Source of the DNA: an uncultured Chloroflexia bacterium
GTDB lineage: Bacteria > Chloroflexota > Limnocylindria > Limnocylindrales > CSP1-4
Direction of reading: 5' to 3'
NCBI GenBank assembly: GCA_963716815.1
Contig: CAVQUM010000012.1
Span: forward strand, 145,030 to 209,029
Length of the DNA: 64,000 bases
The position numbers were made by a program, and so were the translations under genes. Position 1 is the stretch's first letter. Every line of letters begins with the position of its first letter. The notes under the pieces were generated by a model, which made no database searches, was not told the DNA's origin, and saw only the letters and a program-made list of their open reading frames with translations. Positions 13,439-24,904 of this stretch are shown here, one piece after another.

Positions 13439-14227
13439 CTAGGACTCGTCCGCAGCGGCCTCCCCCGCGACGGCGAGGGGCTCGCCCAGCTCGTGGTATG
13501 GGTCGCGCATCTTCAGTGGCGAGGAGTGCTTGGACGATCGGCGGATGTTGAGGATCTCCACGAAGACCGCGAAGCCCATGGCCGCGTAGACGTAGCCCTT
13601 GTCGATATGCTGGCCCAGGCCGTCAGCCACGAGCGTGAAGCCGATGAGTAGCAGGAAGGCCAGGGCCAGCATCTTCAGCGTCGGGTGCTCGTCGATGACG
13701 CGCGTGATGTAGCCGCTGGCCACCAGCATCACCACGACCGAGATGACGACTGCGGCGATCATCACCGCGACCTCGTCGACCATGCCTACAGCGGTGATGA
13801 CCGAGTCCAGGCTGAAGATGATGTCGAGCACCATGATCTGCACGATCACACTCCAGAAGGACGTGACTTTGCCTGTGTCGCGGACGTGGTCGCCGCCCTC
13901 CATGCGGCCGTGGATCTCCCACGTGGCCTTGGCGATGAGGAAGGCACCACCGCCGACGAGGATGAGGTCGCGACCGCTGAACTCGTGGCCGAGGACGGTG
14001 AAGAGCGGTTCGGTCAGCGTCACCACCCAGCTGATGCCCAGCAGCAGCAGGATGCGCATGCCCATGGCCGCGACGATGCCCACGCGCCGCGCGTTGTCGC
14101 GCTGCTCCTCGGGCAGCTTGTTGGCGAGGATGGAGATGAAGACGATGTTGTCGATGCCGAGGACGATCTCGAGCGCCGTCAGCGTCAGCAGCGCGATCCA
14201 GACCTCCGGGTTCGTCAGCAGCTCCAT
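13439..14227 (-). CDS. TerC family membrane protein
   Basis: LTLTALEIVLGIDNI, QIMVLDIIFSLDSVITAVG and HPTLKMLAL.FL.LIG. Confidence 0.93.
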   Translation of the reverse strand: MELLTNPEVWIALLTLTALEIVLGIDNIVFISILANKLPEEQRDNARRVGIVAAMGMRILLLLGISWVVTLTEPLFTVLGHEFSGRDLILVGGGAFLIAKATWEIHGRMEGGDHVRDTGKVTSFWSVIVQIMVLDIIFSLDSVITAVGMVDEVAVMIAAVVISVVVMLVASGYITRVIDEHPTLKMLALAFLLLIGFTLVADGLGQHIDKGYVYAAMGFAVFVEILNIRRSSKHSSPLKMRDPYHELGEPLAVAGEAAADES

Positions 14228-14458
14228 CAGTCCTCCTCGTGGCCGTCCGGTGTCCGCTGCAGACTAGCGGGCGCCGCCGTCGCTCCGCCGGCCGCCCCGG
14301 GCATGGGGCACCGCCGCCGTTCGTCGGCACGATCCCTTGGGGGCGCTGCCGCTCGTCGACGCTATTCCCTCAGGTGGGATATCGGTCAGTTCTGCCCTCC
14401 CTCGCCCAGTCAGATTGAGGCATATTCCATGCCCTCCAAGGGAATGGCGGGCTCCCGA

Positions 14459-14556
14459 GGGATAGCGAGCCTCCGTGGGATAGCGAGCCTCCGTGGGATA
14501 GCGAGCCTCCGTGGGATAGCGAGCCTCCGTGGGATAGCGAGCCTCCGTGGGATAGC
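14459..14556 (+). repeat. 18-bp tandem repeat GGGATAGCGAGCCTCCGT x5 plus 8-bp partial
   Basis: Read directly: perfect units with no spacers. Confidence 0.97.
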
Positions 14557-14604
14557 TGGCCACCGGGCCCCGGACAGCGGGACCTCGAGACGTCGGGGCC
14601 GCCC

Positions 14605-14700
14605 GCGACGAGCCCATCCCGCAACGAGCCTACCCCGCAACGAGAGCACCCTGCGACGAGGGCACCCTGCGACGAGGGCACCCTGCGACGAGGGCACCCT
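14605..14700 (+). repeat. 16-bp tandem repeat GCGACGAGGGCACCCT x6 (three perfect, three degenerate at the 5' side)
   Basis: Units start at 14605, 14621, 14637, 14653, 14669 and 14685. Confidence 0.93.
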
Positions 14701-14822
14701 GCGATCGAGTCGGCCCGGGACCGGTATGCCTCCGGGGGCCTGGAATATGCCTCAATTTGACTGGGCGGCAGGGGGTGGGTCCCCGTGACATGCGAGCTGG
14801 GGGCATAGAACCCAGCCAAGGG

Positions 14823-14892
14823 GCGAACGCAGCCGGGCCGCGAACCAGGCCGCGAACGCAGCCCGCCCGCGAACCACGCCGCGAACCCGGCC
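14823..14892 (+). repeat. 29-bp tandem duplication x2.4 built of GCGAAC subunits
   Basis: 14823-14851 and 14852-14880 are identical at 26/29 positions, followed by a partial third copy. Confidence 0.8.
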
Positions 14893-14937
14893 GACATCCC
14901 AGAGGCAGCCGTCGACAACGGCTACGATGGACGCTCG

Positions 14938-16729
14938 ATGACCGACAGCCCGCAGAACCCGCCCGCGCCCCCGAGCCGCCACGCCCATCCCGAGGAGCTG
15001 CTGGCCCTCATCCGGCGTAGCGTCATCGGTGACGACGAGGCCTTCGATGGCCCCTTCGGCATCCGCCGACTGACATACGCGGACTACACCGCCTCAGGCC
15101 GCAACCTCGGCTTCATCGAGGACTACATCCGCGAGCAGGTCATGCCGCTCTATGCCAACACGCACACCGAATCGAGCGGCACCGGTCTGCAGACGACGCG
15201 CTTCCGCGAGGATGCGCGCGACATCATCCGCGACGCCTGTGGTGCCGAACGAGACGAGTACGCCGTCATCTTCTGCGGCTCCGGCTCCACGGCCGCGGTG
15301 GACAAGCTCATCGCGGTCCTCAACCTGCGCATCCCGGCCGACCTCGACGCACGCTACGGCCTCTCCGCACACATCCCTGCAGATGAACGCCCGGTCGTCT
15401 TCATCGGCCCCTACGAACACCACTCCAACGAGCTGCCCTGGCGCGAATCGATCGCCGACGTGGTGACCATCCATGAAGACGCCGACGGCCGCATCGACCT
15501 GGACCACCTCGAGGCAGAGCTGGAGGCCTATGTCGGCCGGCCGCTGCTGATCGGCTCGTTCAGCGCCGCCAGCAACGTGACGGGCATCAAGTCGGACACG
15601 CGCGGCATCTCCGTGCTGCTCCACCGGCACGACGCGCTTGCGTTCTGGGATTACGGCGCGGCCGCGCCCTACCAGCCACTCGATGTGGCGCCGCGGCGGC
15701 CCAAAGATGACGGCGACACGACCGACGCACCCTTCGACTACAAGGACGCGCTCTTCATCAGCCCACACAAGTTCATCGGCGGACCCGGCACGCCCGGCGT
15801 CCTGGTGGTCCGTCGCGCGCTGCTGACCAACTCCGTGCCGGCCGTGCCCGGCGGCGGCACCGTGGCCTACGTCAACGCCGAGGAGCACGTCTACCTCGAC
15901 GATCCCGAGCACCGCGAGGAGGGCGGCACCCCCGCCATCATCGAGTCCATCCGCGCCGGCCTCGTCTTTGGGCTGAAGGACGCGGTCGGGGCAGAGGCCA
16001 TCCGCGACCGAGGAGGAGCTACTTCATCGAGCGCGCGCTCGCCCGCTGGAGCGACGTACCCGGCCTGGACGTGCTCGGCAGCAGGGAGTGCCCGCGCCTC
16101 TCGATCGTCAGCTTCGTCGTCCGCCACGGGCAACGCTACCTGCACCACAACTACGTGGTGGCCCTGCTCAACGACCTCTTCGGCATCCAGTCACGCGGCG
16201 GCTGCTCGTGTGCCGGCCCCTACGGCCACCGACTGCTGGGTATCGACGTCGAGACCAGCCACGAGTTCGAGCGCGAGATCACCCGCGGCTGCGAGGGCAT
16301 CAAGCCCGGCTGGGTGCGCGTCAACTTCAACTACTTCATCGACGAGACCGTCTTCGACTACATCCTGACCGCGGTCGAGATCGATCGCCCGGGACGGCTG
16401 GCGCCTGCTGCCGCACTATCGGCACGACCCGGCCACCGGCTCTGTGGCACCACGTCGGCCGGACGGCGGAGGCGCCCCTGTCGTTGCGGGATATCCGCTA
16501 CACCGCGGCGGGCATGACCTACGTCCAGCACCGCCGCCAGGAGCCCGAGACCGCGTTCGCCGACTACCTCGCCGAGGCTCGCGCCCTGATGGCGGACCCA
16601 CCCATCCCGGCCGAAACGCCGCAAGCCGCCACCGACCTGGAGGTCGGCGGCGACTTCGAGGGTCTGCGTTGGTACCTGCTCCCGGACGAAGCCGACCGGG
16701 AACTGGTCGAACTGGCCACCCGGCCCTAG
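14938..16729 (+). CDS. Class V PLP aminotransferase / cysteine-desulfurase-like enzyme (frameshifts ~16010 and ~16400)
   Basis: YADYTASGR, YANTHTE, FSAASNVTG, PLP lysine motif ISPHKF.GG, EEGGTP and the cysteine motif SRGGCSCAGPYGH. Confidence 0.87.
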
Positions 16730-17833
16730 CGAACAGCCGAGCCGGGGAGCGCCGTCAGGTCGATCTCGCACAGGCGGACGGTGTCGATCGCGTCGGCCTC
16801 GCACGCGTCAGTCCCTGGGCCGCCCTGCACGACGTCGCTCTCGCCGTCCACGCCCGCGAGCGTGTCGTCACCGCCGATGCCGAACATGCGGTCCCGACCG
16901 CTACCGCCCACGAGCAGGTCGTCGCCTGGACCGCCGCGGACGATGTCGGGGTGCGGCCCGCCGTAGAGCGTGTCGTACCCGCTGTTGCCCTTGAGCGTGT
17001 CCTTGCCGCGCCCGCCGTAGAGCCGGTCGGCGCCACGGCCGCCCAGCAGCCGGTCGGCGCCGTTCTCACCCAACAGCGTGTCCGGCCCATCGCCGCCGAA
17101 GAGGAAGTCGGCATGCATGCCGCCGGCCATGGTGTCCCGTCCGCTGCCGCCGACCAGTCGGTCGTCGTCCGGTCCGCCGACGAGGACGTCGTCGCCCGGT
17201 CCGCCGAAGAGGGCATCGAAGCCCTCCGCGCCGACCACGCGGTCATTGCCGCCGCCGCCCTCGAGGCGATCGCCATCAGGGCCGCCGAAGAGGCGGTCGG
17301 CACCTTCGCCACCGAAGAGCCGGTCACGCCCTCCGCCGCCGCGGACGACGTCGGATCCATCACTGCCCACGAGCACGTCGTGGCCGGCCCCGCCGAGCAG
17401 TCTGTCGTCGCCGTCACCCGCACCCACACGGTCATCGCCGTCGCCGCCGCGGATGATGTCGTCGCCGTCGCCGCCGTAGACGACGTCCGCTCCGGTGCCG
17501 CTGAGCAGCCGGTCGTCACCGAGCGAGCCGCTGATGATGTCGTCGCCGTCGCCGCCAAGGACGAGGTCGTCCCCCTTGCCGGCCCGCAGGATGTCGTCGC
17601 CGTCGCCGCCGATGAGCGTGTCGTTTCCGCCGCCGCCGACGATGAGGTCGTCCCCGCCCAGACCGCAGATGACCTCGCCTGCGGGCGTGCCGGTGAGGCG
17701 GTCGTCGCCATTCGTGCCACTGATGTCACACGCCGGTGCTGCGGCCGCCGGAACGATGGCAGCGAGCGCGAGCGTGGTGGTGCCGAGCACGGTCAGCAAG
17801 ACGGTGCGGGGCACGGAGATCACTTCGATACAT
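16726..17833 (-). CDS. Secreted calcium-binding protein with RTX/hemolysin-type GGxGxD repeats
   Basis: Signal peptide ending AAAAP followed by many GGxGxDxL nonapeptides. The AGGAGG-ATG at 17833 is out of frame by an indel; the alternative start is GTG 17814. Confidence 0.85.
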
Positions 17834-17977
17834 GTCGCCTCCTTCTCTGTATTAGAGGCCTCCTGCGCCTTGGTTCGTTCCGAGTTCACCACCGTGGGCC
17901 GCCCGCGTCGATGGACCAATGGCCCTTCCTTGCCCGTTCGGCGACGGCTGGAGCGCAAGGTCCCAGCCGGCCAGAGC

Positions 17978-18436
17978 TCAGCGGAGCGGGATGTACAACT
18001 CCGTCTTCAGCTCGGACTCGGCCACCTCCTGGGGGTCGTCGATGTAGACCTCCCAAGTGGGGCCTGCGGGCGCTCGGCCTTGCTCGGTCACCCAGGCCAT
18101 CAGTGCCTCCCACGTCCGGCCGATCTGGTCGTACGGGCCCGTGTGCAGCGTGAAGGCTGCCTCACCGCCACCGACCGTACTGGCCTGCACCTCGTTGGTG
18201 CCCGTGAAGGGATCCGGCACCGGGATGGCGCACTCGAAGGTCGTGGCCTCCTCATCGAAGTCGAAGTAGCGCGCGAGCGGCATGCCCGCCGGCTGCACGC
18301 CCGACGAGACGACCGCATGGTAGATCTTGGGGAAGGCCTCGCCCATGGCGGGCCCGATCTGGCTGATCGCACGGGTCATCCTGATGGCGGCCGTGTGCTG
18401 CTCGGTCGTCTGTCGGATCTGGAAGTCGCTCATCAC
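17978..18436 (-). CDS. GyrI-like small-molecule-binding domain protein
   Basis: HTGPYDQIG..WEAL..W and TWEVYIDDP. Confidence 0.88.
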   Translation of the reverse strand: MMSDFQIRQTTEQHTAAIRMTRAISQIGPAMGEAFPKIYHAVVSSGVQPAGMPLARYFDFDEEATTFECAIPVPDPFTGTNEVQASTVGGGEAAFTLHTGPYDQIGRTWEALMAWVTEQGRAPAGPTWEVYIDDPQEVAESELKTELYIPLR

Positions 18437-18895
18437 TCCTCCTCGACGGGCCAGTAGACCTCGGTCCGCAACTGCTCAGGCTCGGTCGTGTCGGGATCGT
18501 TCAGGTACGACTCCCACATGACGGTCGACGGCTTCAGCCCCTGGGCCTCGAGCCAGGCCTGCATCTGCCCGTACGTCTCCCCGAGCTTGCCGTAGGGCCC
18601 GATGTGCATGCCCACGGCCGCCTTCCCACCGCCGATCTCGCCGGCGACGACGTCTCCCTCGCCACCGAACGGCTCTGCCACCGGCAGACCAGCCTCGTAG
18701 GTGATGCTGTCCTCGGCGTAGGCCGTGTACTTGCACATGGGCGGGCCCGCCGCGGCCACGCCGGCCTCGCCGAGCCTGGCGAAGACCTTGGCAAAGGCCT
18801 CACCCATGGTCTCGCTCGATCCTGTCAGCGGACGTCGTGACCGCTACCACGGCGGTGTGCTGCACTGGCACGGAACGGAATTCGAACTCGGACAT
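18433..18895 (-). CDS. GyrI-like domain protein (frameshift ~18815)
   Basis: AGGAGG plus ATG 18895 (MSEFEFRSVPVQHTAVV) joins MGEAFAKV...HIGPYGKLGETY...WESYLNDP. Confidence 0.85.
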
Positions 18896-18949
18896 GCTGC
18901 CTCCTTGCAGGAAGATGCGAGTGGGCTTTCGACTCGAGGCGTCGCGGGC

Positions 18950-19822
18950 TCACTCGAACACCCGTGGACTGCCTGCCTGTGCCTTGACCGGGAAGGAGAT
19001 GTCGACCTGGTTGAGGTAGGTCTCCTGGTCGATCGAACCAGTGCGGTACCACTCGATCGACGCGCCGTAGACGATCATCTCGGGGTGGGCCATCAGCCGC
19101 GCGCTGATGAGTCCGTAGGCGTAGCCGATGCGACTGAACGGGCCGACGTAGGTCGTGAAGGCGTAGGTGCCGCCTGCGACCGTCTGCTGGCCCAGGCCAC
19201 ACTCAGGCGGCAGGTCACGATCGATGGTCCAGCCGGCGTCGAAGCGCAGGCGTTCTGGCGGCGTGATGTGCGGCGGGTCCTGGGCGATCCCCAGGGGCAG
19301 GCCGTCGGTGGAGCAGCCGAGCTCGGCGAGGCGGTCTCGGACGCGTCCCCAGAGGCTGCCGTCAACCTCGTCGTAGGGACCAGTGTGGCGCAGGAACGCG
19401 ACCTCGATGGGGCGCAGATCGGTCACCCGCGTGGAGGAGATGCGGGCACCCTCGATCTCCTCGGAGAGGCCCGGATGGCGCGCGTTATGCCCCAGGCCAC
19501 CGGCAGCCTGACGCGCGCGCCACGCGCTCGGCGACACGCCGAAGTGGCGGCCGAACGCACGGCTGAAGACCTCGTGAGAGACGTAGCCGTTGTCGAGCGC
19601 GACCTCGAGGATCGTGCCCTGCCGCACCATCAACTGGGATGCGGCCCGCTCGAGGCGCAGCCGCTCCACGTGGCGTCTGGGCGTCTCGCCCGTGGCTTCG
19701 ACGAGGCGACGGTGAAGGGTCGACTCGGACATCCCCGCCTGCCGCGCGAGAGCGGCTGTGCTGAGGTCCGAGTCGAGCCCGGCCTGGATGTGGACCAGTA
19801 CCGGCAGCAGGTCGGCGTCCAT
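18950..19822 (-). CDS. AraC-family regulator with C-terminal GyrI-like effector domain
   Basis: Double HTH (LARQAGMSESTLHR; ALDNGY.SHEVFSRAF..HFG.SP) followed by HTGPY...RFDAG...IEWY. Confidence 0.9.
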   Translation of the reverse strand: MDADLLPVLVHIQAGLDSDLSTAALARQAGMSESTLHRRLVEATGETPRRHVERLRLERAASQLMVRQGTILEVALDNGYVSHEVFSRAFGRHFGVSPSAWRARQAAGGLGHNARHPGLSEEIEGARISSTRVTDLRPIEVAFLRHTGPYDEVDGSLWGRVRDRLAELGCSTDGLPLGIAQDPPHITPPERLRFDAGWTIDRDLPPECGLGQQTVAGGTYAFTTYVGPFSRIGYAYGLISARLMAHPEMIVYGASIEWYRTGSIDQETYLNQVDISFPVKAQAGSPRVFE

Positions 19823-19925
19823 GGCCCGCAGCATGGCGGACACCGGTTCCGGTGTCTTGACAATTCCTGTCGTGTGGACTGCCCGCACAACAGGCTGCGC
19901 CGCAATCGGTCAGGCTGGTGGTGCC

Positions 19926-20627
19926 ATGACCAAGCAGTTCAAGCAGATGACCGCGGCGGAGGCACGGACCGCCTTCTACGTCGACTTCGAGGGTGGCGCG
20001 GACGCGCCGCCGGTGCTGCTGGGCATCCTGCGCAAGCACATCCAGCAGTACGTGGTCGACCCCGCCTTCCGGCCGCTCGGTCCCGCCTACCTCGAGCTGC
20101 GCCAGGCCGTGGCCACGGTGGTCACACGGGCAGAGAAGCAGGACCGGCGCATCGTCTCGTGGAGCGAACATGACCTTGAGATCGTGCGCAGCCTGACGGC
20201 CGAGCCCGGGCTCATCCGCCGTTTCGAAGCTCGCTATGCCAACGGCCGTGCCCTCGTTGCCCGCTGGGCCTCGCGCGGTCCCGGCATCGAGAAGCCCGAC
20301 ACGGGTGATCTGGAGCTCTACCTCGAGCTGATCGGCTTCGACGTGCCCGCGGCGGCCGGGCCGGGGCACGTCGGCGAGACGATCCGCAGCCTGCGACCCA
20401 GCCTCGACGCCGGACGCGGGCCGAACGAGTCACAGCTCGGGCGCTGGGCTGACCTGCTCGAGCACAACCGCTACGACTGCGAAGGGACGCGCGCGGTCTG
20501 CGTGCGGGCTGCGACCGACCTCGAGCGTATCGACGAGCGCATGCGGAAGGCGCGCAAGGGCCGCAAGGCGCGCAAGGGCCGCGACGCGCAGAAGGGCCCA
20601 AAGACCGGCGGCCCGGCCGGCGCGTAG
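19926..20627 (+). CDS. Hypothetical protein, possible RNase H-like/DEDD exonuclease fold with basic tail
   Basis: FYVDFEG (DxE) near the N-terminus, LLEHNRYDC (HNxxD) near the C-terminus, and a KARKGR-repeat tail. Confidence 0.5.
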   Translation: MTKQFKQMTAAEARTAFYVDFEGGADAPPVLLGILRKHIQQYVVDPAFRPLGPAYLELRQAVATVVTRAEKQDRRIVSWSEHDLEIVRSLTAEPGLIRRFEARYANGRALVARWASRGPGIEKPDTGDLELYLELIGFDVPAAAGPGHVGETIRSLRPSLDAGRGPNESQLGRWADLLEHNRYDCEGTRAVCVRAATDLERIDERMRKARKGRKARKGRDAQKGPKTGGPAGA

Positions 20628-20695
20628 CGGCGCTGCGGGACCGACCGTCACCGGCCCGACCCACTCCCCGCCCGGGCCCACTCCCCGCCCCGCGA

Positions 20696-21694
20696 CTACG
20701 CCCCGCCGACCTCGTGGACCGGCGCGCCGGTCTCCTCGAAGGCGGTGAGGTTGGCCATCGTGGCCTCGGCGATGTTCGCCAGTGCCTCGGCGGTGAAGAA
20801 GGCCTGGTGCGCGGTGATGAGCACGTTCGGGAACGTCAGCAGGCGGGCGAAGGTGTCGTCCTGGATGATCGAGGCGCTCTGGTCCTCGAAGAACCCGATG
20901 GCGTCCTCCTCTTCGTAGACGTCGAGCCCGAGGGCGCCCAAACGCCCGTCCTTGAGCGCGTCGATGGCGGCCTCGGTGTCGATGAGCCCGCCGCGGCTGG
21001 TGTTCACGATGAGCACGCCCGGCTTGACCCGCGACAGCGTGTCGGCGTTGACGATGTGGTGCGTCTCGGACGTGAGGGGAGCGTGGAGGGCGATGATGTC
21101 CGACTCAGCGAAGAGCTCGGGCAGGTCCACGTACTTGGCAGTGAGCGCCATCATGTCGTCGTTGGGGTAGGGGTCGTAGGCCATCAGCCGGCAGCCGAAG
21201 CCCTTCATGATGGTGGCGAAGACGGTGCCGATGCGGCCGGTCCCGACCACGCCCACGCAGCGATCGTGCAGGTCGTAGCCGAGCAGGCCGTCGAGAGCGA
21301 AGTTGCCGTCGCGGACACGGTTGAAGGCCCGGGGGGTGTGCCGGACCAGGCTGAGGATGAGCGCGACCGCGTGCTCGGCCACTGCATAGGGTGAGTAGGC
21401 CGGGACGCGGCAGACACGGATGCCGAGCTCCCCGGCAACCTCGAGGTCCACGTTGTTGAAGCCTGCGGCGCGCAGGGCGACGAGCCGTGTCCCGCCATCG
21501 GCGAGGACGCGCAAGACATCGCCGCTGACCTCGTCGTGGACGAAGACGCAGACCGCGTCGTGGTCGGCGGCCAATGGCGCGTGGTCACAGTTGAGCCTGG
21601 CTTCGAAGAAGTCGAGCTGGTGGGGAGAGCCCGCGGCGGCGGCACCGAGGTATCGCTCGTCGTAGGGCTTGGAGGAGAAGACGGCGACTCGCAT
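20696..21694 (-). CDS. ldhA: D-lactate dehydrogenase / 2-hydroxyacid dehydrogenase
   Basis: ALRAAGFNNVD, RVPAYSPYAVAEH, GVVGTGRIG, NTSRG, LGLDVYEEE and TAHQAFFT. Confidence 0.92.
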   Translation of the reverse strand: MRVAVFSSKPYDERYLGAAAAGSPHQLDFFEARLNCDHAPLAADHDAVCVFVHDEVSGDVLRVLADGGTRLVALRAAGFNNVDLEVAGELGIRVCRVPAYSPYAVAEHAVALILSLVRHTPRAFNRVRDGNFALDGLLGYDLHDRCVGVVGTGRIGTVFATIMKGFGCRLMAYDPYPNDDMMALTAKYVDLPELFAESDIIALHAPLTSETHHIVNADTLSRVKPGVLIVNTSRGGLIDTEAAIDALKDGRLGALGLDVYEEEDAIGFFEDQSASIIQDDTFARLLTFPNVLITAHQAFFTAEALANIAEATMANLTAFEETGAPVHEVGGA

Positions 21695-21787
21695 GGTCCG
21701 AGAGTAGCTGACGGAGGCAGACGCACCGAAAGGGCCGGGATGTGCTCCCGGCCCGTCCGTGTGCTAGTGCGCCCGGAGGCGCCGCCT

Positions 21788-22555
21788 CTAGGCGATCTCG
21801 TACTGGATGACGACGTTGACCGAGAGCTCGACCTCTCCCGGCAGCACCGGGGTGGAGGCGGCCGTATCGGCTGCGAAGGCCATCTCGGCCCGTTCCATGT
21901 AGATGGGCTGCGGCTGCTGCCCGCCCGACTCGCTGATGCTGACGATGCCGATGATCTCGACACCCGCGTCGGCTGCCAGTTGGTCGGCCTTGGCCCGCGC
22001 ATCGTCGACGGCGGCGGTGCGTGCCAGCATCTGGGCTTCGGTGGGGTCCTCCACGCGGAAGCTGATGCCGTTGACCTGGTTGGCGCCGGCCTCGACGACG
22101 GTGTCGATCACGTCGCCCACCGCTTCGATGTCACGCACCGTGACGTTGACCATGTTGCTGGCCTCCCAGCCCACGATGGCCGCTGGCTCCTTGTTCCAGT
22201 CGTAGCGCGCGTTGAGGTTGAGGCTGGTGGTCTGGATGTCCTTCTCGTCGATGCCCAGGCCCAGCAGCGCCTTCACCACCGAGTCCATCGAGGCTGCCGC
22301 CTTCTTCGAGGCGCCGCTGGCTTCCTTGGCCTGCTCGTACACCCCGATGTTGACGTCGGCCACGTCGGGGACCGCGTTGACGCGACCGGTGCCGTTGACG
22401 CTGAGCGTGCGCAGCGTCTGGTCGGCCGAAGTGTCCGACTGGGCTTGCGTGGCCATGGCGCCAGCTCCCAGGAACGAGGCGGCGAGCAGGCCGGCTGCGA
22501 GGCCGACCGCGATCGGTCGCAGGCTGGGACGGGTGAGGGAGATGGTGGTGTTCAC
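21788..22555 (-). CDS. SIMPL (DUF541/BP26) domain protein, secreted
   Basis: Signal peptide; LSVNGTG.V.AVPDVA; A...AV.DARAKA..LA; PV.PGE......V. Confidence 0.9.
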   Translation of the reverse strand: MNTTISLTRPSLRPIAVGLAAGLLAASFLGAGAMATQAQSDTSADQTLRTLSVNGTGRVNAVPDVADVNIGVYEQAKEASGASKKAAASMDSVVKALLGLGIDEKDIQTTSLNLNARYDWNKEPAAIVGWEASNMVNVTVRDIEAVGDVIDTVVEAGANQVNGISFRVEDPTEAQMLARTAAVDDARAKADQLAADAGVEIIGIVSISESGGQQPQPIYMERAEMAFAADTAASTPVLPGEVELSVNVVIQYEIA

Positions 22556-22670
22556 CGTGGTCGATCCTCCGGGTGTTCTGGTGCGTCCTGGCGCGGGCAG
22601 TCAGCGCACGATGGCGCGGCCTCGCACGGACTAGACGCCACCGAGTGGCGAGCGGTTCCCGGCCCTGGTC

Positions 22671-23159
22671 CTACGACGCGGGCTTGAGTGGGTAGATGAC
22701 CTCGGTCAGCCACTTGCCCGGGTCGGGTTCGGCCGAGGGGTCGGTGAGATAGAGCTCCCACGGGCCGCCGTTGGCCACGTAGTCCTGCGAGGCCTCGAGC
22801 CAGCGGTTCATGGCCTGGTAGGTGGCAGCGAGCGTGTCGTACGGGCCGGCGTGGACGGCGATGGCCGCCGGTCCGGAGGGCAGTCCGCTGGGCACGACCT
22901 TGCCGTCAGGGGCGATCGGGGCGCTGACCATGAACCCGGCCTCGAAGTCGACCGTCGCACCGTACGAGTGATAGCGCGCGAACGGCGCGCTGGTGGCGTC
23001 CACGCGCTGTGTCTCGAGGGCATGTCTGACGGCCTGGAGCGCGCTGCCCATCTGCAACGACAGCACCGAGGCGTCGACCTCCTGGCGCATCGTCGCGGTG
23101 TGGTGGCTCCGCAACACGCGAAGCTCGATCTTCGAAGACGGTCCTCGTTGGTCAGGCAT
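22671..23159 (-). CDS. GyrI-like domain protein
   Basis: PFARYH, HAGPYDTL.ATY..M..W and WELYLTDP..EPDP.KW.TEV.YP. Confidence 0.87.
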   Translation of the reverse strand: MPDQRGPSSKIELRVLRSHHTATMRQEVDASVLSLQMGSALQAVRHALETQRVDATSAPFARYHSYGATVDFEAGFMVSAPIAPDGKVVPSGLPSGPAAIAVHAGPYDTLAATYQAMNRWLEASQDYVANGGPWELYLTDPSAEPDPGKWLTEVIYPLKPAS

Positions 23160-23527
23160 GACGGCACCTCTGCGGTCGGTAGTGAGACTGTGCCGCGTCG
23201 TCCGCCCGAACGCAAGCCGCTGATGGTCATGTCGATCGATGTCTTCGGCGCACCCATTGCCGACCCCTTTCGGTTGCCCGTTCGCCTGCTGTTCCTCCTG
23301 GCGCGCTATTCCCCTTGGGGGCAGACCGAAGGGAGAGGCCCCCCTTCGGCCAGTCCGGTTGAGGCATACCTGGGGTCCCGATGGGGAATATGCCCAGCCG
23401 ATCAAGCCCGGGGATGGGAAGGCCGAAGCCCACGAGAAACGCGACCCAAGCCTGAAGTCAGCGCGAGGCGATGCCGGGAAAAGGCTGAGGTGGTCCCTGG
23501 AACAGGGTGAGACCGCACAGTGTCCGC

Positions 23528-23926
23528 ATGCCCTACCTCTTGCCCGACGGTGAATGGGACCGGATCCTGCTGCGAAGGTTCGGGGTTGCGCTGCGCCGAT
23601 GCCGGCTCGCGTCCGGGTTGAGTCAGATGGTGCTTGCCGAGCGCTCGGGCGTCTCACAGACGACCATCTCGCGACTCGAGAACGGCAAGGCACCGGCCGT
23701 GTCCGTCTACAAGCTCCTGCGCCTGGGCGACGTGCTCGGGCTCGGGTTGCCGCTGGCCTTCTGCCCGCACCGCCACCACTGCGCGTGGCGCCCGTTGCGG
23801 GAGGACGGCTCCGAAGACCGTCGCCACGAACCAGCCGTTGCGGACGACTTCTGGCGCAGCCTCCTGCCGGACGAACCAGCCAGCCTCCTGCCGGACGAAC
23901 CAGCCAGCCTCTTGCCGGACGAGTGA
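23528..23926 (+). CDS. XRE-family helix-turn-helix protein with C-terminal Cys/His motif
   Basis: LRRCRLASGLSQMVLAERSGVSQTTISRLENG, then FCPHRHHCAW. It ends in LLPDEPAS repeats. Confidence 0.8.
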   Translation: MPYLLPDGEWDRILLRRFGVALRRCRLASGLSQMVLAERSGVSQTTISRLENGKAPAVSVYKLLRLGDVLGLGLPLAFCPHRHHCAWRPLREDGSEDRRHEPAVADDFWRSLLPDEPASLLPDEPASLLPDE

Positions 23927-23956
23927 GCCAGCCAGCCTCCTGACCTCGAGTGAGCC
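23857..23956 (+). repeat. 24-bp tandem repeat CAGCCTCCTGCCGGACGAACCAGC (two perfect, two degenerate) spanning the HTH stop codon
   Basis: Units start at 23857, 23881, 23905 and 23933. Confidence 0.9.
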
Positions 23957-24240
23957 GTGAGCCCATTGGCCTGCCTGGTGGGTTCCATCGGGAGGACAGG
24001 CCCGCCCGGCATCACGAGTGCAGCCCGTCTTATGCCTCCAAGGGGACTTAGATATGCCTCAACCAGACTGGGCGGAGGAGGGCCTGTTCGTCCGACACGC
24101 CCCCAATGGGCATAGTGCCGGCCCACACCCGGCTTGCGTCCACGGCCGAGCCTGGCCCAGGCCCGCGGAGGAGGCCTACCTGGACCGCCGAGCCCGACAC
24201 GGTCGGAACCCCGGACGGAGAGGGGCGGTAGGCTGGCGCC

Positions 24241-24904
24241 ATGAGACGTCGCCCAATAGTGCTCCTGGTACTGACCTCAGCCCTCCTGCTGTCGGGTGTG
24301 CCGGCCGGGGCGCAAGGCGACACGCCATCGGCCACCCCGGAGCCTTTGGCCTCGGCACAGGCGACCCAGGTCCCGTCGGTGTCGAGATCGGGCCGGCCGG
24401 ACCTGTACCTCAAGATGCCGTACTACATCGGCGGCTTCGAGCCGGACATCGTGATGACCAGGGGGGAGGAGCATTTCGCCAACCTCGACGTCGGCGACCC
24501 GAAACGAGCAGAGCTCGAGAGCTTGCTCGAGACGGTCGGAGCGGAGGCCGACGATCTGGTCTCGGGCTACGCACTCGTGTCGCAGGAAGACTTCTTCAGC
24601 TTCGTCGTGGCCATCCGCGTCGACGGGATCGACACCGGGCACGTTGCTCCCTGCCTACCTGCCCATCCTCTACGAGGACCTCGAGGATCCGCGGAGCGTC
24701 GCCACGCAGATGGCCGGCCGCGATGTCACCATCATCACTTCGCTTGGCAGCGACGATGAGTACGTCGAGCTCTATGTCTATGACGAGGGCGACACGATCT
24801 GGATGCTCCAGGGTCCCCTGAGCGTGGTCGAGACGACCCTCGCCAATCTGCCCGACCCGCTGCCGATACCAGGGGAAACGACGCCAGGGGAAACGACGCC
24901 ATAG
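24241..24904 (+). CDS. Secreted hypothetical protein (frameshift ~24645); paralog of 45135-45740
   Basis: Signal peptide and acidic body. C-terminus GDTIWML....VVETTLANLP is similar to GDALWLL....LVEETVESLP. Confidence 0.65.

Follow-up and report, generated by a model that had tools for sequence, protein, structure and literature searches.

A gene for a small helix-turn-helix protein with a CPHxHxC motif, here termed XRE-CHHC, lies between two inverted arms in the DNA analysed (the window, 64 kb in full), and arms of this kind accompany the gene among its relatives: inverted repeats (z of at least 5) flank 17 of 23 XRE-CHHC loci, taken from members of the genus and from distant metagenomic relatives, and 0 of 25 control loci (Mann-Whitney p = 1e-8). 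This is the co-occurrence of sites and factor gene across relatives that is looked for in an operator array. On balance, and judging from sequence comparison, the arms probably represent arrays of cognate sites for XRE-CHHC, be it as operators or as nucleoprotein arms; most likely they are neither a folded RNA nor a REPIN. In the initial annotation the arms were described as a structured module, and the key association was missed, namely that they constantly accompany the XRE-CHHC gene, which here lies in doublet 2.

Arms, cores and copy number

The four arms annotated in the window were recovered by model matches and by their cores (at 14406, 14746, 23350 and 24053), and they form two convergent inverted doublets, as had been described. 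Arm 1 (14360-14450, plus strand; core CCAGTCAGATTGAGGCATA at 14406-14424) and arm 2 (14722-14809, minus strand; core at 14746-14764, minus strand) are the left and right arms of doublet 1, which is gene-free between its arms. Arm 3 (23304-23394, plus strand; core at 23350-23368) and arm 4 (24027-24117, minus strand; core at 24053-24071, minus strand) are the left and right arms of doublet 2; arm 3 is proximal to the XRE start and has a conserved inner extension, GGAATATGCCCAGCCG. The conservation of the core claimed earlier is far above chance: CCAGTC-N3-TTGAGGCATA has 4 matches in the window vs 0.02 expected, and genome-wide (24 contigs, 78% complete) its 8 copies correspond to 8 arms in 4 doublets, all of them convergent inverted pairs with the arms 180-975 bp apart. 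Clusters of GGCATA are likewise found at the doublets only. By model search an arm measures about 88 bp (arrays of 60-90 bp), the two arms of a pair are 72-87% complementary and thus constitute terminal inverted repeats, and in every doublet the left and right arms share an identical 11-nt stretch, TTGAGGCATAT. The identity matrix for the arms of this genome reveals an invariant 22-nt core and 49-71% identity in the remainder, and no clustering of left with left or right with right arms, so that separate left and right lineages could be rejected as the source of the T/G difference in the outer motif.

Outside this genome, the exact core is absent from all 36 genus genomes in which it was sought and yields chance-level single matches only among GTDB species representatives; the divergent copies in 41 genomes of the genus were detected only by model search.

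Unit architecture and folding

Each arm can be viewed as an array of about four phased units of ~22 bp. The outer one would be a palindrome, CTATKCCC-N3-5-GGGNGTAT, another would be rich in C, CCAGTC-N8-GCATAT would form the core and CCAGKC-N8-9-GMATA the inner unit. The constant distance between outer motif and core that had been remarked upon was confirmed, CTAT(T/G)CCC standing 57 bp from GGCATA in 11/11 arms of three species, and in these same arms the unit spacing is invariant, with values of 57 and 20-22 bp that are near multiples of the helical repeat. The outer 8-mer is kept in 7 of the 8 arms. The 22-nt core is invariant, the rest of the arm only 49-71% identical and the spacing fixed, a constraint typical of a binding site and one of our grounds for favouring the binding-site reading. 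The arms of relatives retain the inner units only, the outer half and the 84-bp 'hairpin' not being conserved, and in the orthologous gene-less doublets of two relatives (G010, G030) the units appear to have been retained and the spacers lost.

A family of RNA or single-stranded DNA hairpins (a REPIN or an IS200/IS605-type end for a Y1 HUH enzyme) or an ncRNA, as originally put forward, is by now largely refuted, and we find it hardly credible. It is true that the outer CTATKCC and the inner GGMATAG are 86% pairable and that some single arms fold better than shuffles (z down to -3.7), but most arms fold no better than shuffles and the RNAalifold consensus reaches -2.14 kcal/mol. The supposedly compensatory T-A versus G-C swap in the closing stem dissolves over the 8 arms into GC in four, UA in two and a broken pair in two, a degree of covariation reached by 63/500 shuffles, and the 84-bp structure, in arms that differ so widely outside the core, has no conserved outer half in relatives. 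An ncRNA is further contradicted by the absence of promoter-like or terminator-like sites within the arms and by the Rfam search, in which the arms had no match at E<=1 (two chance-level matches elsewhere, E 0.15-0.18). As to recognition by an HUH enzyme, no Y1/RAYT (PF01797) gene was found in this organism's own genome at 78% completeness, control genomes being positive, and the wide separation of the arms and their low copy number do not fit either. A short intergenic repeat arranged in inverted doublets does recall REPIN/RAYT systems; a REPIN, however, is one compact hairpin of ~100 bp, present in tens to hundreds of copies together with a Y1 RAYT, whereas here 8 arms of 88 bp stand 180-975 bp apart and no RAYT was found. 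IS200/IS605 elements possess subterminal hairpins at their left and right ends, both on one strand, together with a Y1 TnpA, in contrast to the inverted arms seen here, which have no stable conserved hairpin and no PF01797 partner.

Association with the XRE-CHHC gene

The XRE-CHHC gene (23519-23926, plus strand) lies inside doublet 2 and encodes a protein of 135 aa with HTH_31/HTH_3 at residues 20-76 followed by FCPHRHHCAW, that is, the CPHxHxC motif after an XRE helix-turn-helix; its C-terminus is encoded by a 24-bp tandem repeat (23857-23942). No catalytic domain was found in the 135 residues, and the AlphaFold model resolves the HTH only, the CHHC tail being of low confidence. The family, with the signature ...P(L/F)G.CPH.H.C.W..., comprises 392 representative clusters at E<=1e-10, and the names retrieved for sampled members are all generic labels such as "XRE regulator". 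A metagenome scan with the protein returned one locus only.

The repeats flanking XRE-CHHC homologues consist of inward-pointing (C/T)AGTC-N-GCAT units, which in this genome's flavour are helically phased at fixed spacing. At the XRE-CHHC loci the motif (C/G/T)AGTC-N5-10-GNMAT is found 27 times inward and 4 times outward, vs 2 and 2 at the controls, and every close XRE-CHHC orthologue in the genus sits between arms. Where a genome has two XRE paralogues (G030), these have different arm flavours and the gene-less doublets match one of the two; the present genome has a single XRE, and all 4 loci, a relic (the C9 doublet) among them, share one and the same core. The motif is conserved or co-varies with the protein, the constraint resides in the motif and the spacing is fixed, all of which belongs to the picture of an operator array.

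Several findings nevertheless run counter to an operator. The core is non-palindromic, unlike that of a simple HTH-dimer operator; G010 keeps well-formed arms although truncation has left its XRE with about 27 residues and no further orthologue was detected; G064 contains a related element with no XRE orthologue detected in a genome that is 73% complete; and in G016 some single arms stand without a partner.

Inheritance, insertion and inversion

To judge from gene order and divergence, the XRE locus is vertically inherited: the module is syntenic, and its divergence keeps pace with that of the adjacent genes. The order SIMPL-like gene, GyrI-like gene (22671-23159, minus strand; left neighbour), module and gene for a secreted 172-aa protein (24241-24759, plus strand; right neighbour) is kept in G000, G006, G062, G030, L104 and L168. 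The other three of the four doublets (doublet 1, C4 and C9) are without an XRE gene. The C9 doublet is what remains of a second XRE module after loss of the gene, and stems from an ancestral module different from the present one. Doublet 1 and the C4 doublet, by comparison of orthologous sites, are lineage-specific insertions: the spacer between the TerC and aminotransferase genes that houses doublet 1 measures 712 bp here vs 100-160 bp in G021, G032, G033 and G036, and the C4 site, between GH125 and its neighbour, 1357 bp here vs 30-60 bp in five relatives. Empty sites thus exist, since close relatives lack both doublets at the orthologous positions. A DUF2652 gene forms part of the C4 doublet, and orthologues of it elsewhere are without repeats. 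The earlier proposal of a lineage-specific mobile or structured element survives as far as repeated lineage-specific doublets and insertion polymorphism are concerned, and is not supported in its HUH and ncRNA parts.

An IS-like or MITE-like element would have the arms as transposon ends, with binding sites at the termini and just inside them, XRE-CHHC as the element-encoded end-binding protein, with catalysis by another or a host enzyme, and the gene-less doublets as non-autonomous copies able to carry passenger genes; in each of these parts we consider it rather unlikely. It would account for a gene lying between inverted repeats, for the conservation of both the outer 8-mer and an internal block, for the insertion of doublet 1 and the C4 doublet where close relatives have 30-160 bp, and for the DUF2652 passenger. 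In the same direction point G064 and G005, which share ~98% identical flanks and differ in an element of ~470 bp, G016 with at least 10 arms, some near toxin-antitoxin genes, and the decay of the protein gene in G010 and G001. Against it speak the 135-aa protein without a catalytic domain and the lack of a target-site duplication at the 4 doublets and at the G064/G005 difference, although old copies could have lost it; the latter difference, moreover, is a replacement of the whole spacer and not a clean insertion. That neither a transposase nor a target-site duplication adjoins the arms had been stated before and holds. No larger autonomous copy was found in the 41 genus genomes, among which MAGs may miss repeated IS copies; arm pairs in these genomes enclose at most about 1 kb, and the only gene inside the examined gene-bearing pairs is XRE-CHHC. 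The copies within the genome are old, as their divergence outside the core attests, and the vertical descent of the XRE module argues in the same sense. Of the hallmarks of a MITE, terminal inverted repeats and presence/absence at orthologous sites are found, an autonomous parent is not. There is a resemblance to IS/MITE systems and to multi-site-end transposons (Tn7, Mu, Tn552, IS21) in the gene enclosed by inverted arms with several sites of ~22 bp each, in the pairs without a gene, in the presence/absence polymorphism and in the capture of passengers. These systems differ from the present case in that here no transposase or target-site duplication can be recognised, the copy number is low, the copies are old and diverged, and the gene-bearing copy is syntenic across the genus.

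At the syntenic locus the XRE cassette occurs in both orientations across the genus, toward the side of the GyrI-like gene in G000, G006, L104, L168, G033 and G004, and oppositely in G062 and G030, two genomes that the GH125 tree does not place as sisters. This could indicate an inverton, in which the arms are recombination sites and flipping of the segment alters expression of XRE or a neighbour, the shared core allowing one enzyme to act at all doublets; both propositions strike us as distinctly improbable. The 11-nt identity between the two arms of each doublet is in keeping with it, but the arm pairs are otherwise imperfectly complementary (72-87%), no tyrosine recombinase lies in or near any doublet, the two intact tyrosine recombinases of the genome (probably XerC/XerD) and one fragment are all remote from them, and rare homologous recombination between the repeats would equally give inversions between species. 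The arms also bear no likeness to the dif candidate at C1:95039, and Xer/dif-type modules were rejected on that ground. As in hin/hix, gin/gix and the promoters under Bacteroides global invertases, inverted repeats surround a segment of ~0.2-1 kb with a gene for a small DNA-binding protein, the repeat recurs at several loci and both orientations exist among species; in contrast to these systems, a recombinase domain is missing from the protein encoded between the repeats, which are imperfect and far longer, and flipping is known between species only.

Neighbouring genes and tandem repeats

Doublet 1 is framed by two outward-facing genes, a TerC-family gene on the left (13439-14227, minus strand) and a class-V aminotransferase gene on the right (14938-16368, plus strand). 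A conserved -10-like TAGTCT (reverse complement of CAGACTAGCG) adjoins the TerC-family gene outside the arm, and a conserved GGCTACGATGG stands about 10 nt upstream of the ATG of the aminotransferase gene. The doublet lies about 95-115 bp from these conserved -10 elements and is therefore too far away for simple occlusion. Arms serving as promoters or 5' leaders were discarded, since TAGTCT and TACGAT of the neighbours are conserved in relatives without arms and promoter-like sites are missing from the arms, and so was a plasmid or phage origin, there being no protein or DNA match in the plasmid or phage collection.

Tandem arrays occupy the interior of doublet 1 (14455-14709; 5.7 copies of an 18-bp unit and 5-6 of a 16-bp unit), where the 18-mer GGGATAGCGAGCCTCCGT carries on from AAGGGAATGGCGGGCTCC, the final unit of arm 1, and a further array with GCGAAC-rich units of 12/17/29 bp is situated just outside arm 2 (14823-14893). 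Near the doublets 10 such arrays are found vs 0.3 expected, an enrichment of about 33-fold within 250 bp. They are not a unique hallmark of the doublets, as 48 tandem-repeat clusters (periods not multiples of 3) occur elsewhere in the genome without inverted arms; only the local enrichment is real.

This enrichment, the duplication of arm units in several of the arrays and the hypervariability of the same spacers in relatives would be expected of a polar protein-DNA barrier like Ter/RTP, at which stalled forks lead to tandem duplication, indels and gene insertion nearby. In Bacillus subtilis the inverted repeats IRI/IRII adjoin rtp, and the architecture found here is similar. We nevertheless judge such a barrier highly improbable: the case is purely circumstantial, the 48 clusters elsewhere stand without arms, and GC skew is too noisy in the 24-contig assembly to place the doublets relative to origin or terminus. 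With RTP/Ter and the iterons of plasmid origins the doublets have in common a small DNA-binding protein gene beside inverted composite sites, additional sites elsewhere and, in the ~22-bp direct repeats, an iteron-like character; they differ in the fold family of the protein, in having sites on both sides of the gene and in the lack of evidence for fork arrest or replication.

Possible mode of action and significance

If the arms are site arrays of XRE-CHHC, as we favour, its own gene is bracketed by two inverted arrays with inward-pointing units. The protein may bind cooperatively on one helix face at both arms and bridge them, which would loop out its gene and result in autoregulation or insulation, and the looped complex could influence the outward-facing neighbours; the other three doublets would then be protein-less satellites bound in trans. 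Binding, looping and regulation are what we infer from the arrangement. Autoregulated repressors of the Cro-CI type (lambda CI at OL/OR; controller C-proteins of restriction-modification systems) offer a parallel with a small XRE HTH gene beside its own repeated sites, helical phasing and two separated clusters that could be bridged. The present system departs from them in its inverted arrays of 60-90 bp to either side of the gene, in units that are no simple palindromes, in the additional CPHxHxC motif of the protein and in the protein-less satellite pairs elsewhere in the genome. A pure operator model leaves unexplained both the insertion of whole doublets, one of them with a passenger gene, and the pile-up of short tandem repeats around them.

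XRE-CHHC and the inverted arms might together form a previously undescribed, self-contained DNA element without a canonical transposase or recombinase, a thought we entertain with considerable reserve. An HTH protein of ~110-135 aa with a CPHxHxC metal site would assemble a nucleoprotein complex on the two inverted arrays, and this complex, alone or with a host enzyme, would favour the inversion, duplication or relocation of the DNA between the arms, whereby gene-less satellites could be seeded, passenger genes captured and nearby DNA destabilised. If true, this would be a minimal system for recombination or mobility, or else a barrier of the Ter kind.

A protein family that is uncharacterised and seems to be widespread is hereby linked to a specific DNA motif and to a constant and unusual architecture, and a family without known function gains a direct and cheap test, for which the protein and an 88-bp arm would suffice. 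The doublets furthermore provide a natural system for asking by what route binding-site arrays reach new loci, for what reason tandem repeats gather in their vicinity and whether a small HTH protein is able to invert or relocate DNA in the absence of a classical recombinase.

Arrangement and conservation of the arms

The four repeat arms reported from the window in the initial annotation were confirmed at their positions (14360-14450 and 14722-14809, doublet 1; 23304-23394 and 24027-24117, doublet 2), and the core CCAGTC-N3-TTGAGGCATA has four matches in the 64 kb, against 0.02 expected from shuffles. Their reading as two convergent inverted pairs was also borne out, one pair being 72% complementary across 88 nt and the other 87% across 39 nt. 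The genome-wide count suggested there gave eight arms in the own assembly (G000; 3.58 Mb, 24 contigs, 69% G+C, 78% complete), four beyond those of the window, forming four convergent doublets, the other two at C4:196031/197006 and C9:357557/357736; the window itself spans C12:145030-209029 (C-numbers denote contigs). Outside the 22-nt core the eight arms share just 49-71% identity. They are about as similar within a doublet (60%) as across doublets (56%), and this comparison did not separate a left-arm from a right-arm lineage. Although the sequences diverged, the spacing is rigid: in all 11 arms compared, which come from three species, GGCATA lies 57 bp from the outer motif and is followed by a 3' G.ATA after 20-22 bp. 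An arm can be read as about four blocks of ~22 bp, with the ending G(C/A)(G/A)TA(T) common to three of them, and the inner half of the relatives' arms consists of two plain tandem units, CCAGTC-N8-GCATAT and CCAGTC-N6-9-GGGCAT. In a genome-wide scan, the doublets were the only sites with clusters of GGCATA. Together, the strong conservation of the core, the freely varying flanks, the absence of indels and the phasing on the helix form the signature of a protein-binding array, and the pattern argues against both a decaying repeat and a folded RNA.

The initial annotation had proposed a REPIN-like element or ncRNA, with a compensatory T-A/G-C swap in a closing stem (outer CTATKCC with inner GGMATAG). 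Rfam gave no match in the arm region, for most single arms the fold is no more stable than that of shuffles (z of -0.14 to -2.9 on the aligned strand, +0.23 to -3.7 over both strands), and the RNAalifold consensus of the eight arms has an energy of -2.14 kcal/mol. In the closing stem 86% of the cells are pairable; the position of the swap is GC in four arms, UA in two and broken in two, and the covariation score was equalled by 63 of 500 shuffles; a compensatory swap was not confirmed. An RNA family is not supported by these results, and neither is a REPIN, no Y1/RAYT gene (PF01797) having been found in the 78% complete own genome. No promoter-like or terminator-like sites were found within the arms.

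The XRE-CHHC gene and its putative cognate arms

Doublet 2 contains a single gene (window 23519-23926) for a 135-aa XRE HTH protein (HTH_31/HTH_3), in which the HTH is followed by FCPHRHHCAW; the family name XRE-CHHC was coined in this analysis. An arm sequence model detected diverged arms, for the most part as convergent pairs, in 16 of 41 genomes of the genus (G-numbers; single loci bear L-numbers). Two matches, L020 (G010:C1:230719) and L021 (G001:C5:61287), are false positives not to be counted as arms, lying in what we take, from the translation, to be a linker-coding stretch within an E2 acyltransferase gene. Close orthologues of the XRE gene (G006, G062, G030 with two loci, G033, G004) are all situated between arms, and homologues of only 36-50% identity are also arm-bracketed, their arms differing in sequence and keeping the unit (C/G)AGTC-N7-9-GCAT. 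When 1.84 billion representatives were searched with a profile, 392 proteins were recovered at E<=1e-10; all sampled members (~100-240 aa) carry ...P(L/F)G.CPH.H.C.W... after the HTH, and the names retrieved for them are generic XRE-type labels. Distant members from unrelated metagenomes have inverted repeats with the same unit type on both sides. The flanking inverted repeats of XRE-CHHC loci measure 48 nt at L168, 69 nt (84% complementary) at L169 and 42 nt (86%) at L171; L177 has two plus two copies of CCAGTCAGGTCGGGGCAT, and L178, in a complete 2.89-Mb genome, has one copy upstream and a tandem-triplicated arm downstream (L178:3142-3372), whose 84-88-bp period is about one arm length. In one uniform test, flanking inverted repeats reached z >=5 at 17 of 23 XRE-CHHC loci versus none of 25 control loci (Mann-Whitney p = 1e-8), and units point gene-ward 27 times and outward 4 times (controls, 2 and 2).

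G030 possesses two XRE-CHHC paralogues and two arm flavours, AGTCGGGGCATAT and GCTCGGCGCATAT, and its gene-less doublets are of the first; the own genome has a single XRE-CHHC gene and one core common to all four loci. The C9 doublet is the orthologous site of the second G030 module, with left and right neighbours shared and the gene lost. Next to doublet 2, the non-conserved C-terminal tail ...PRCHHHHFAWQRR of a secreted 172-aa protein (window 24655-24759), whose alignment to relatives stops at residue 138, resembles CPHRHHCAW, which may reflect chance or a frame change.

Descent, inversion and insertion

The gene-bearing module has descended vertically: a SIMPL-like gene, a GyrI-like gene, the module and a secreted-protein gene follow one another in G000, G006, G062, G030, L104 and L168, remnants of this arrangement are found in G001, and divergence of the XRE-CHHC protein parallels that of its neighbours. 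The cassette lies one way in G000, G006, L104, L168, G033 and G004 and the opposite way in G062 and G030; since the latter two are non-sisters on the GH125 tree, inversion between the arms occurred more than once, and arms and enclosed segment may constitute an inverton. The XRE gene has decayed to ~50 residues in G001 and to ~27 in G010, where the arms are nevertheless still well formed.

Doublet 1 and the C4 doublet, satellites without the XRE-CHHC gene, are insertions, as comparison with relatives shows, and arms plus XRE-CHHC may represent an IS-like element. Doublet 1 separates a TerC-family and a class-V aminotransferase gene, a pair syntenic across the genus, with a spacer of 712 bp here versus 100-160 bp in G021, G032, G033 and G036. 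The neighbours' -10-like elements are conserved across the genus beside the genes (CAGACTAGCG, rc TAGTCT, window 14250-14272, ~35 nt before the TerC start; GGCTACGATGG, window 14918-14930, ~10 nt before the aminotransferase ATG), which places doublet 1 between two resident promoters; their positions suggest short-leader or leaderless transcripts. At C4, two convergent genes, which in five relatives lie within 30-60 bp of each other, are separated by a 1357-bp block made up of a DUF2652 gene with, on each side, an arm and then tandem repeats. DUF2652 orthologues in other places lack flanking repeats. Other, different repeat-rich inserts occur in the TerC/aminotransferase and C4 spacers of G013, G064, G034 and G062. 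G064 and G005 have ~98% identical flanks and differ by a ~470-bp element replacing the whole spacer, at which no target-site duplication was seen. In G013 (L050), where no XRE-CHHC orthologue was detected, the TerC/aminotransferase spacer has a 765-bp insert with ~7 tandem GCCGCCCAGCGGGCCAATCGGGCATCGACCGGCTC units to one side and inverted TCGCCCGCTGAGCGGGCAGCC... units to the opposite side; this insert may be related to the arms at some distance. The same spacer in G020, G023, G061, G011 and G008 (L055, L056, L057, L059, L063) contains an extended open frame on the minus strand, without counterpart in the own genome, which, read by eye, is presumably a methyltransferase-like gene.

G016 contains at least 10 arms of the family, single ones included, some adjoining toxin-antitoxin genes. 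Judging from the translations, the small toxin-antitoxin-like genes beside the G016-flavour arms at L160, L162 and L166 are an RHH+PIN pair of VapBC type and antitoxins resembling Phd/YefM; one ~890-bp arm-bearing segment is duplicated in tandem.

Ten tandem arrays are found no more than 250 bp from one of the four doublets, against 0.3 expected genome-wide. Several of them duplicate arm units, among these the 18-mer that follows arm 1 and, at C9 and C4, units containing CTATGCCC. Another 48 tandem-repeat clusters with non-multiple-of-3 periods in the own genome are arm-free, intergenic short tandem repeats of such periods being a general feature of this genome, independent of arms (periods of 10-55 bp, e.g. 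C5:25033-26987, C4:117119-117595). To the right of the C9 doublet, the neighbouring gene's open frame (C9:357749-358837, minus strand) continues for ~90 non-conserved codons through a 16-bp tandem array into the right arm, and its C-terminus seems altered by repeat growth. The 27-bp periodic repeats at window 16835-17698 are due to the RTX repeats of a 410-aa ORF (16726-17958, minus strand; 14 calcium-binding nonapeptide matches, PF00353, E = 7.5e-78).

Possible functions

An operator model alone leaves whole-doublet insertion, recurrent inversion and local repeat instability unaccounted for, and arms and XRE-CHHC may therefore instead form an IS-like element, an inverton or a Ter-like barrier. 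A catalytic candidate was found for none of the three; no catalytic domain could be recognised in the enclosed protein, and a tyrosine recombinase search recovered only two intact ones in the own genome. A candidate chromosomal dif site, GGGCCGATAATGTAAGTTATGTAACAT, lies at C1:95039 (minus strand), a local extreme of that contig's cumulative GC skew. No plasmid or phage relatives occur in the collections searched, and no published description of the arrangement was found in the literature searched. Gene-arm association, motif conservation and geometry are matters of observation, and the arms are best explained as putative cognate site arrays of XRE-CHHC, which would bind them, with autoregulation or looping as the consequence.
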